The notes beneath the pieces are model-generated. The model worked only from the letters and a program-made list of their open reading frames with translations. It was not told where the DNA came from and did not search any database. From Candidatus Latescibacterota bacterium (GTDB lineage: Bacteria; Latescibacterota; UBA2968; UBA8231), in contig OZ242005.1 of NCBI GenBank assembly GCA_965204725.1, positions 4,416,001 to 4,480,000 on the forward strand: 64,000 bases of DNA, read 5' to 3'. Below are positions 58,024 through 58,468 of the stretch, piece by piece (the first letter of the stretch is position 1; the number at the start of each line of letters is the position of its first letter). Made by a program: the position numbers and the translations under genes.

Positions 58024-58073
58024 ATCTGCTCAAATCTGCTTGGAGTCGGAACTTAGAAAAATCTATTGAGCGA

Positions 58074-58181
58074 GTTGCACCGGACGTTGTCAAGTCCCGG
58101 GGGGCGGGACTGCTGACGGACGAGAGGGTCCAGTTCACCATCACGTTGCACCGGACGTTGTCAAGCCCCGGGGGTCGGGAC
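58074..58181. CRISPR. Orphan CRISPR-like repeat-spacer-repeat with a self-matching spacer
   Basis: 37-bp direct repeats at 58074-58110 and 58145-58181 (35/37 identical) flank a 34-nt spacer identical to 34743-34776; no cas genes in the window. Confidence 0.55.
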
Positions 58182-58468
58182 TTAGAAAAACATAGCGAGC
58201 GAGTTGCACCCTCGGCAAAACGGCTCGGGCCACCTATGACGTGCTTGACTATTAGGTCTAAAGGTACGTAATTTTTTGTTTAAGAAGATCATAGATGCAA
58301 TCCAATGGAAAGCTAAGACGCCTACATCGCCGCTAAGAAGTTGCCCCAAAAACCAGAGGAAGTTATCGCGGAACCCAAGGCATGGTGCTAGCTGGTCTTT
58401 CAGCGAATCCGGCCAGCGTAGCGGTGCTTTCTCATGGTCGTAATTCCTTCTGAGACAGGTTCTATCAA

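Follow-up and report, generated by a model that had tools for sequence, protein, structure and literature searches.

The question raised by the locus described here is how a unit with the dimensions of a minimal CRISPR array came to stand in the promoter region of a bacterial gene, in a genome where no cas genes are detected and with a spacer that copies another of the genome's own genes. The locus lies in a stretch of 64,000 nucleotides (nt) from a Candidatus Latescibacterota bacterium (contig OZ242005.1, forward-strand positions 4,416,001 to 4,480,000; hereafter the window, in whose numbering positions are given unless a contig is named). The genome as a whole consists of two contigs of 5,381,243 and 51,736 bases (5.43 Mb, 60% G+C), and the one that holds the window is called C1 below. 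Between the start codon of a gene for a TonB-dependent receptor (58023) and that receptor's conserved upstream region, two copies of a 37-nt direct repeat, R (R1 and R2), enclose a 34-nt insert, S. On balance we favour, without great assurance, the reading that R-S-R is a natural 'neo-CRISPR' scar, which off-target Cas1-Cas2 integration would have left before the cas genes were lost. The initial annotation of the window had listed a nascent array of this origin among several options; it is the one that best fits the 37+34 nt geometry and the existence of a single-R allele in a related strain, with Cas1-Cas2 itself as the presumed agent.

Three allele states at the receptor promoter

Logan contigs of four sequencing runs (X1, X3, X10 and X16) were aligned on positions 57400-58900, X16 giving no coverage of the locus. 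Run X1 probably represents the window's own organism, and X3 is a sponge metagenome from a different study that holds a different strain. Together with the orthologous loci of other species of the genus, these contigs reveal three allele states. In state 0, found in the genomes G027, G019 and G001, there is one copy of the promoter. In state 1, found in run X10, a 40-nt duplication with an 18-nt filler places one R between two 21-mers. State 2 is R-S-R itself, found in the window and in the X3 strain. X10 is more distant from the window and from X3 than these two are from one another, and state 0 is that of the outgroups; the most parsimonious order is therefore 0 to 1 to 2.

The allele without the insert, which it had been proposed to look for in relatives, is carried by a 2539-nt contig from X10 (depth 90) that joins 58073 to 58145 and omits exactly 71 nt, that is, R plus S, with 21 nt fitting on either side. 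This contig differs from the window at 19 of 1423 aligned letters, seven of them to the right of the joint and none in 58145-58210, and in the X10 strain S is present in its gene context only. The difference between states 1 and 2 amounts to a seamless insert of 34 nt with an exact duplication of 37 nt, the junctions sharing at most 1 nt; R, which flanks S in the window, is single-copy in the allele that lacks the insert, as expected of a neo-CRISPR product. The two changes in R1 relative to R2 are not in excess of the divergence between window and X10 (19/1423; Poisson P ~0.09). A 58-bp tandem repeat had been put forward as the target of the integration, and here the outcome is mixed: a single R between two 21-mers does exist, in X10, whereas its origin by simple 58-nt tandem duplication is rejected by inspection, the filler lying in neither flank and the flanks being orthologous to those of relatives.

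State 2 is supported by two sets of contigs. Those of X1 and of X3 each contain the junction from R1 to S, the junction from S to R2 and the gene context of S, and the 35-nt unitig of S has a depth of 230 in X1 against 102-119 for its neighbours (about twofold) and of 79 in X3 against 45-50 (about 1.6- to 1.8-fold). No one short-read contig spans R1-S-R2, as contigs break within the repeated S. The X3 strain is identical to the window over 741 letters on one side of the locus, differs at 5 of 784 letters and by four indels on the other, and carries one single-nucleotide difference in the gene flank of S. In the three informative runs the number of spacers is 1, 1 and 0, the spacer being always S, and no array turnover (differing spacers between strains) was seen among them. 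The window's stretch is held mostly in sponge and marine metagenome runs, and the orthologous loci come largely from sponge-associated metagenome-assembled genomes of Candidatus Latescibacterota.

A repeat of local sequence and an insert from a distant gene

The match that the initial annotation had reported between the spacer and the gene at 33392-37399 is exact: S is identical to its source at 34 of 34 positions, or 35 of 35 if the first G of R2 is included. The source lies about 23 kb from R-S-R and corresponds to codons 451-462 of a putative surface protein, whose match to the CHU_C type IX secretion C-terminal domain is weak and below the Pfam cut-off. Chance falls far short of explaining 34 identical nt in 5.4 Mb, and S occurs at these two places only in the whole genome when up to six substitutions are allowed (blastn-short agrees). 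The homologous genes of G027 and G010 retain the stretch that corresponds to S, with substitutions, which makes the gene the donor and the intergenic sequence the derived copy. Outside S, comparison of the locus with the gene gave nothing beyond a shared 7-nt word, CTTGGAG, and further homology or microhomology between them is ruled out. A diversity-generating retroelement, which needs a template repeat of about 100 nt differing at adenines and a reverse transcriptase nearby, does not fit either, the shared stretch being 34-35 nt with zero differences; no search for a reverse transcriptase was made.

R is built from the promoter in which it stands. In the three species checked, the orthologous receptor gene (90% nucleotide identity to the window in G027, the closest species, and 81% in both G019 and G001) is preceded by one segment of 8, 21 and 11 nt. 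The ends of this ancestral 40-nt segment recur in R, as its initial 8 nt, GTTGCACC, and its final 11 nt, GGGGTCGGGAC, and R is thus no imported CRISPR repeat. An imported orphan CRISPR array is rejected on the same ground, both ends of R being ancestral local sequence, present once in the other species of the genus that were checked, and the label 'orphan CRISPR array', under which the locus was first described, is misleading. The 18-nt filler between these ends, m, is absent from the other species, and a search of the whole genome found no source for it at up to two mismatches and chance-level matches at three.

Repeat detection in the window returns two nested pairs. The inner pair, which contains R, is 38 nt long with 95% identity and a spacing of 71; the outer pair, 58042-58081 and 58171-58210, is 40 nt long with 85% identity and a spacing of 129. 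From 58042 onwards the order is an 11-mer GGAGTCGGAAC, a 21-mer TTAGAAAAATCTATTGAGCGA, R1, S, R2, a second 21-mer and GTTGCACC. The 37-bp repeats at 58074 and 58145 that differ at two positions are thus as first described, and the two related 21-mers and the partial repeats noted outside them prove to be parts of one thing, all falling inside the outer 40-nt pair. The coordinates are collected in Table 1.

Table 1. Features of the R-S-R locus and of the gene from which S was copied (window positions)
Feature	Position	Strand	Remarks
R1, 37-nt repeat copy	58074-58110		Adjoins the receptor gene; differs from R2 at 58095 (T/C) and 58104 (G/T)
S, 34-nt insert, TGCTGACGG...CCATCAC	58111-58144	+	Same orientation as source gene
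R2, second 37-nt repeat copy	58145-58181		35/37 identical to R1
Ancestral 40-nt promoter/leader segment (11 + 21 + 8 nt), proximal copy	58042-58081	-	Last 8 nt are the first 8 of R1
Distal copy of the 40-nt segment	58171-58210	-	85% identical to proximal copy; first 11 nt are the last 11 of R2
m, 18-nt filler within R1	58082-58099		Second copy at 58153-58170
Putative -10-like box TAGATT	58060-58065	-	In the proximal 40-nt copy
Putative -10-like box TATGTT	58189-58194	-	In the distal 40-nt copy
Putative -35-like box TTGCCG	58213-58218	-	18 nt upstream of the distal -10-like box; position conserved
TonB-dependent receptor gene	55741-58023	-	CarboxypepD_reg and Plug domains; promoter/5' leader region holds R-S-R
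Source of S ('protospacer')	34743-34776	+	Inside coding sequence; 5' flank ...GAGAACGCCT, 3' flank GGACGACAGC...
Putative surface-protein gene (1335 amino acids)	33392-37399	+	He_PIG Ig domains, FlgD_ig; weak CHU_C match

R-S-R has the geometry of the smallest possible array, two direct repeats of a length within 23-47 nt and one spacer of similar length, and the CRISPR-like sizes first noted (a 37-nt repeat and a 34-nt spacer), like the reverse-strand ending GCAAC, hold good. On the minus strand, which is the receptor's sense strand, R begins with GTC, ends with GCAAC and has a 6-bp GC hairpin in its 5' part, the stability of which is not above that of shuffled sequences. Its borders are a G in first and a C in last position, 37 nt apart. 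On the same strand R directly follows the AT-rich -10 region, and since it stands directly beside this AT-rich promoter segment its position loosely resembles a leader-repeat junction. The conserved upstream segment is probably a sigma-70-type promoter with a short leader: in G019 the sense strand reads TTGCAA, a 17-nt spacer, TATATT and then about 35 nt to the ATG. A sigma-70 scan gave no site at threshold within the window.

The receptor promoter is an insertion hotspot in several species. In G011, G012 and G022 (loci L036, L037 and L038) the orthologous promoter is interrupted, immediately past the -10-like box, by some 300 nt of inserted sequence that has an 8-9-nt word, GTTTTTCTA, at both of its ends.

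CRISPR-Cas in this genome and in the genus

Profile searches of the whole genome with PF01867, PF09827, PF18019, PF03787, TIGR01865 and PF07282 gave zero matches, so that the absence of cas genes first noted for the window extends to both contigs: no Cas1, Cas2, Cas3-HD, RAMP or Cas9 domain and no TnpB-type TNB/Cas12f-type domain is found. As a control, the same profiles were positive in 5-8 of 14 named genomes, except TIGR01865, for which the control is weak (0 of 14 past the cut-off).

R itself is confined to this locus. In the whole genome only its two copies are found when up to eight substitutions are allowed (blastn-short agrees); none of the other 30 genomes of the genus has a match at up to three mismatches in 31 nt, a weak R-like match in G003 (L009) looking like chance; and an exact 21-mer of R has no match in the genome_contigs and metagenome_contigs collections, a second pattern searched in metagenome_contigs also giving none. 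Against the CRISPR-DR families of Rfam there was no match at E values up to 10. The comparison with repeat databases that the initial annotation had proposed thus places R in no CRISPR-DR family of Rfam.

No true CRISPR array was found elsewhere in the genome. Among candidates with three copies at k=14, the five inspected are all coding tandem repeats with periods divisible by 3, the rest being judged from the list. On C1 there are 36 two-copy pairs with a repeat of 28-45 nt and a separator of 15-45 nt; of the ten inspected besides the R-S-R locus, nine fall within a frame that has no stop over 100 or more amino acids, a weak criterion in that R-S-R itself lies in a stop-free frame of 118 amino acids, and the tenth, at C1:3898577, is a duplicated gene start. 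Over 65 candidates judged by inspection, R-S-R is the only unit genome-wide that has a spacer copied from elsewhere and is not a coding tandem or dispersed short repeat. The tenth pair, C1:3898577-3898682, is a non-coding 38-nt direct repeat (95% identity) whose 30-nt separator holds a ribosome-binding site and an ATG; it is not CRISPR-like and appears to be a gene start in duplicate.

A trace of a former system is nevertheless present outside the window. At C1:1375307-1375343 (L112:10308-10344) there is a solitary 37-nt CRISPR repeat, with no spacers or cas genes beside it, that matches the type III-D repeat of G027 at 34 of 37 positions and gives a full-length match to Rfam CRISPR-DR10 (E 0.041, below gathering). 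At the syntenic site, G019 and G028 have arrays next to an orthologous gene, with about 20 repeats in the flanking sequence retrieved; G007 and G020 have a single repeat-like match, and 15 of the 20 loci compared (19 relatives and this genome) have none within 1.5 kb. The solitary repeat seems to be all that is left of an array since lost, which suggests that the lineage formerly had CRISPR and that its cas genes have since disappeared from this genome. The genes that flank the type I-C locus of G027 are also syntenic here, with 90-95% amino acid identity; the slot between them (C1:2970926-2975093, L113, 4.2 kb) is occupied by ankyrin-repeat genes, together with one gene that has a superinfection-immunity domain, and by no cas gene.

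Of the genus-mates sampled, 8 of 15 have Cas1, as do 19 of 61 sampled genomes of the family, the window's own among the 61. Nine array-bearing loci beside Cas1 were measured in seven genus-mates (among them G004, G005, G008, G023, G026 and G027), and the repeat is 37 nt long at seven of them, 36 nt at one and 32 nt at one. The long Cas1 frames in genus-mates are a Cas4-Cas1 fusion and not RT-Cas1, as judged from the one tested (G023). In G027 there is a complete type I-C locus (Cas3, Cas5c, Cas8c, Cas7, Cas4, Cas1 and Cas2), the array of which, like R-S-R, combines a 37-nt repeat with spacers of 34-37 nt; of its 40 spacers, 10 are 34 nt long, 23 are 35, six are 36 and one is 37. A type III-D locus is also present in that genome, its repeat being 37 nt and its spacers 36-49 nt long, and the repeats of the III-D array in G019 are spaced at 76-80 nt.

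The I-C repeat of G027 and the minus strand of R share an initial GTC, a GC hairpin within the 5' half and a final AAC, but without gaps they are identical at only 14 of 37 positions, R being built from promoter sequence, and unlike the I-C array R-S-R has one spacer and no adjacent cas genes. Comparison of R with the repeats of the genus by global alignment against shuffled sequences gave p values of 0.016-0.36 in ten comparisons, none of which survives correction.

Weighing the explanations

If Cas1-Cas2 integration is the correct explanation, the course of events may have been as follows. An older event would have duplicated a 40-nt piece of the receptor promoter and leader with an 18-nt filler, and this duplication would have created R, a GC-rich, partly palindromic 37 nt beside an AT-rich promoter segment. 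A Cas1-Cas2 integrase whose ruler measured 37 nt, and which the lineage would still have possessed, would later have placed 34 nt taken from the cell's own surface-protein gene at the border of R; gap repair would have duplicated R, and the cas genes would have been lost afterwards. The unit would now be transcribed only as part of the 5' leader of the receptor mRNA. The seamless insertion of 37+34 nt appears to match the geometry of CRISPR adaptation and to fit the arrays of the lineage, in particular the I-C array of G027, in which a quarter of the spacers have the length of S.

Several points weigh against this explanation. There is no Cas1 or Cas2 in the genome now, so the enzyme is one that we infer. 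The older event, a 40-nt duplication with an 18-nt filler, misfits a 37/34 ruler, so that some process has made a duplication with an insert here without CRISPR geometry, and the second event is in a different frame from the first, unlike the growth of an array. R finds no counterpart among the Rfam CRISPR-DR families and resembles the repeats of the genus only weakly. The motif of type I-C systems is TTC, and the flanks of the source (CCT on the plus strand, 5'; TCC/GTC on the minus strand) do not seem to match it, the comparison being with this general protospacer adjacent motif (PAM); type III-linked adaptation modules require no PAM. The solitary repeat is of the III-D kind, and the III-D arrays measured have longer spacers than S. 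The X10 allele could instead have arisen if R1 and R2 recombined and S was lost, and in the three informative runs no strain has more than a single spacer.

The main rival is a Cas-independent process of illegitimate recombination or repair, in which, within a promoter rich in palindromes, either a staggered break or template switching during replication led to the duplication of 37 nt and the capture of a 34-nt copy from 23 kb away, a similar accident having earlier made the 40-nt duplication with its 18-nt filler. We hold this to be possible, if on the whole doubtful. The non-CRISPR lengths of the older event at the same site (40 and 18) argue for it, as do the present lack of cas genes, the weakly repeat-like character of R, the lack of a canonical PAM when the flanks are set against the general type I-C motif, and the fact that the promoter is a hotspot in relatives too. 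However, neither junction has microhomology, Ku was not found in the genome, there is no second intergenic unit with a spacer copied from elsewhere in the genome, and the lengths are exactly 37 and 34, as in the arrays of the closest species. We also know of no bacterial repair pathway that yields seamless 37-nt target duplications, which counts against this rival.

Whatever the origin of R-S-R, it might have been retained as a selected regulatory RNA element. The leader of the receptor mRNA from the distal promoter would be about 155-160 nt long and would contain R, the reverse complement of S and R again; its 34-nt segment, a perfect antisense to codons 451-462 of the surface-protein mRNA, could pair with that mRNA and couple the two genes. 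An antisense role of S in the receptor 5' leader is possible as judged from sequence, but selection for it we consider unlikely. S does lie between the conserved promoter boxes and the start codon, with its reverse complement on the receptor's sense strand, it is unchanged in two strains, and the antisense stretch is weakly structured in the minimum-free-energy fold of the leader. Yet the promoter is a putative one that falls below the threshold of the sigma-70 scan, two strains so closely related would be expected to share S even if nothing selected for it, a sister strain, that of X10, has no S at the locus, and the leader folds in no unusual way (z -1.3).

That R-S-R is a working orphan mini-array, its CRISPR RNA being used by a Cas or TnpB-like effector encoded elsewhere, is very improbable. 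The sizes of repeat and spacer and the minus-strand ending GCAAC are what would be expected, but the two-contig genome has no Cas1, Cas2, Cas3-HD, RAMP, Cas9 or TnpB-type TNB domain, none of the 30 other genus genomes contains R, nor, as an exact word, do two large collections, its ends are local ancestral sequence, and a guide that directed DNA cleavage to the chromosome of its own cell would kill it. The guide RNA that had initially been suggested finds no support: besides the missing domains and the confinement of R to this locus, there is no Rfam CRISPR-DR match. Finally, an assembly chimera, to which the lack of a single short-read contig across R1-S-R2 might point, is excluded for practical purposes by the independent contig sets of X1 and X3 from different studies, which give both junctions, by the raised depth of S in both, and by the clean 71-nt alternative allele in X10, which is expected from biology and not from misassembly.

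How, then, does the proposed off-target Cas1-Cas2 integration at this locus compare with what is known of other systems? Self-targeting spacers and orphan or degenerate arrays left after cas loss are known generally. Like R-S-R, these have a spacer that matches the host chromosome and stand in a genome without functional cas genes, but they are genuine arrays with the repeat of a family, whereas R is found nowhere else. Neo-CRISPR loci formed by off-target Cas1-Cas2 spacer integration were reportedly described in Escherichia coli by Nivala, Shipman and Church in 2018. These loci, like R-S-R, reportedly have a spacer-sized insert flanked by a duplication, one repeat in length, of formerly single-copy sequence, at a site beside AT-rich DNA that is unrelated to the resident array. 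R-S-R differs from them in being natural and not the product of over-expressed Cas1-Cas2, in having a spacer from its own chromosome, in that the integrase is one that we infer, and in that the cas genes have since been lost and both the pre- and the post-integration allele exist in nature. In vitro, Cas1-Cas2 of Pyrococcus furiosus has been described as making off-target full-site integrations into plasmids at repeat-like sites with G/C borders one repeat length apart (PMC6698737). R shares with those sites a G in first and a C in last position, one repeat length (37 nt) apart, although the ruler of the P. furiosus system is 30 nt (PMC6698737) and R has no demonstrable positional conservation with the repeats of its lineage.

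Off-target integration has been proposed as a route by which new arrays are born, and a preprint that cites the E. coli work speaks of "circumstantial evidence" in two species. As far as we have seen, natural evidence for it is thin: full-text searches brought up no natural case with both alleles, although the 2018 E. coli paper and its supplements may list natural cases. If it arose by off-target integration, R-S-R is a new natural case of an already known type of locus, the neo-CRISPR type, and an example of the acquisition of self DNA followed by, or alongside, the loss of cas genes in an uncultured sponge-associated lineage of Latescibacterota. Its value lies in that nature provides both the earlier and the later allele, the spacer can be traced to its donor with single-base precision and the lost systems can be read in close relatives; with donor, target, pre-integration allele and the lost systems of the lineage all in hand, the mechanism is testable.

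There is an outside chance of something larger: that off-target adaptation created a putative trans-acting RNA link from the leader of a TonB receptor to a putative type IX-secreted surface protein, the sponge symbiont concerned having shed its cas genes thereafter, or, alternatively, that a Cas-independent process makes CRISPR-like units. If the antisense link were real, the CRISPR adaptation machinery would be a source of regulatory novelty, here linking nutrient uptake with cell-surface display, and if a Cas-independent process makes repeat-spacer-repeat units, this would bear on how arrays are born.

Some further observations concern the surroundings of the locus. Between the R-S-R structure and a plus-strand gene for a Wzy_C (O-antigen ligase-like) protein at 58469, the sequence at 58240-58350 is AT-rich and conserved with G027; it is presumably the promoter region of the Wzy_C gene. 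Most genomes of the genus, G001, G019 and G027 among them, have two paralogous copies of the TonB-dependent receptor, 2-10 kb apart, and in six relatives the promoter word TATTGAGCGAGTTGCACC recurs about 2.3 kb away. Families of short dispersed palindromic repeats (...CATTCCCGCGAAAGCGGGAATCCAG... and ...GGATCGAGGGCGTCCCGCCCTCGACGAGGGCAAGATGCCCTCGATCC...) are present in hundreds of copies genome-wide, and also in relatives (L002/L042); in the window they occur, for example, at C1:4457824-4458185 (window ~41824-42185).

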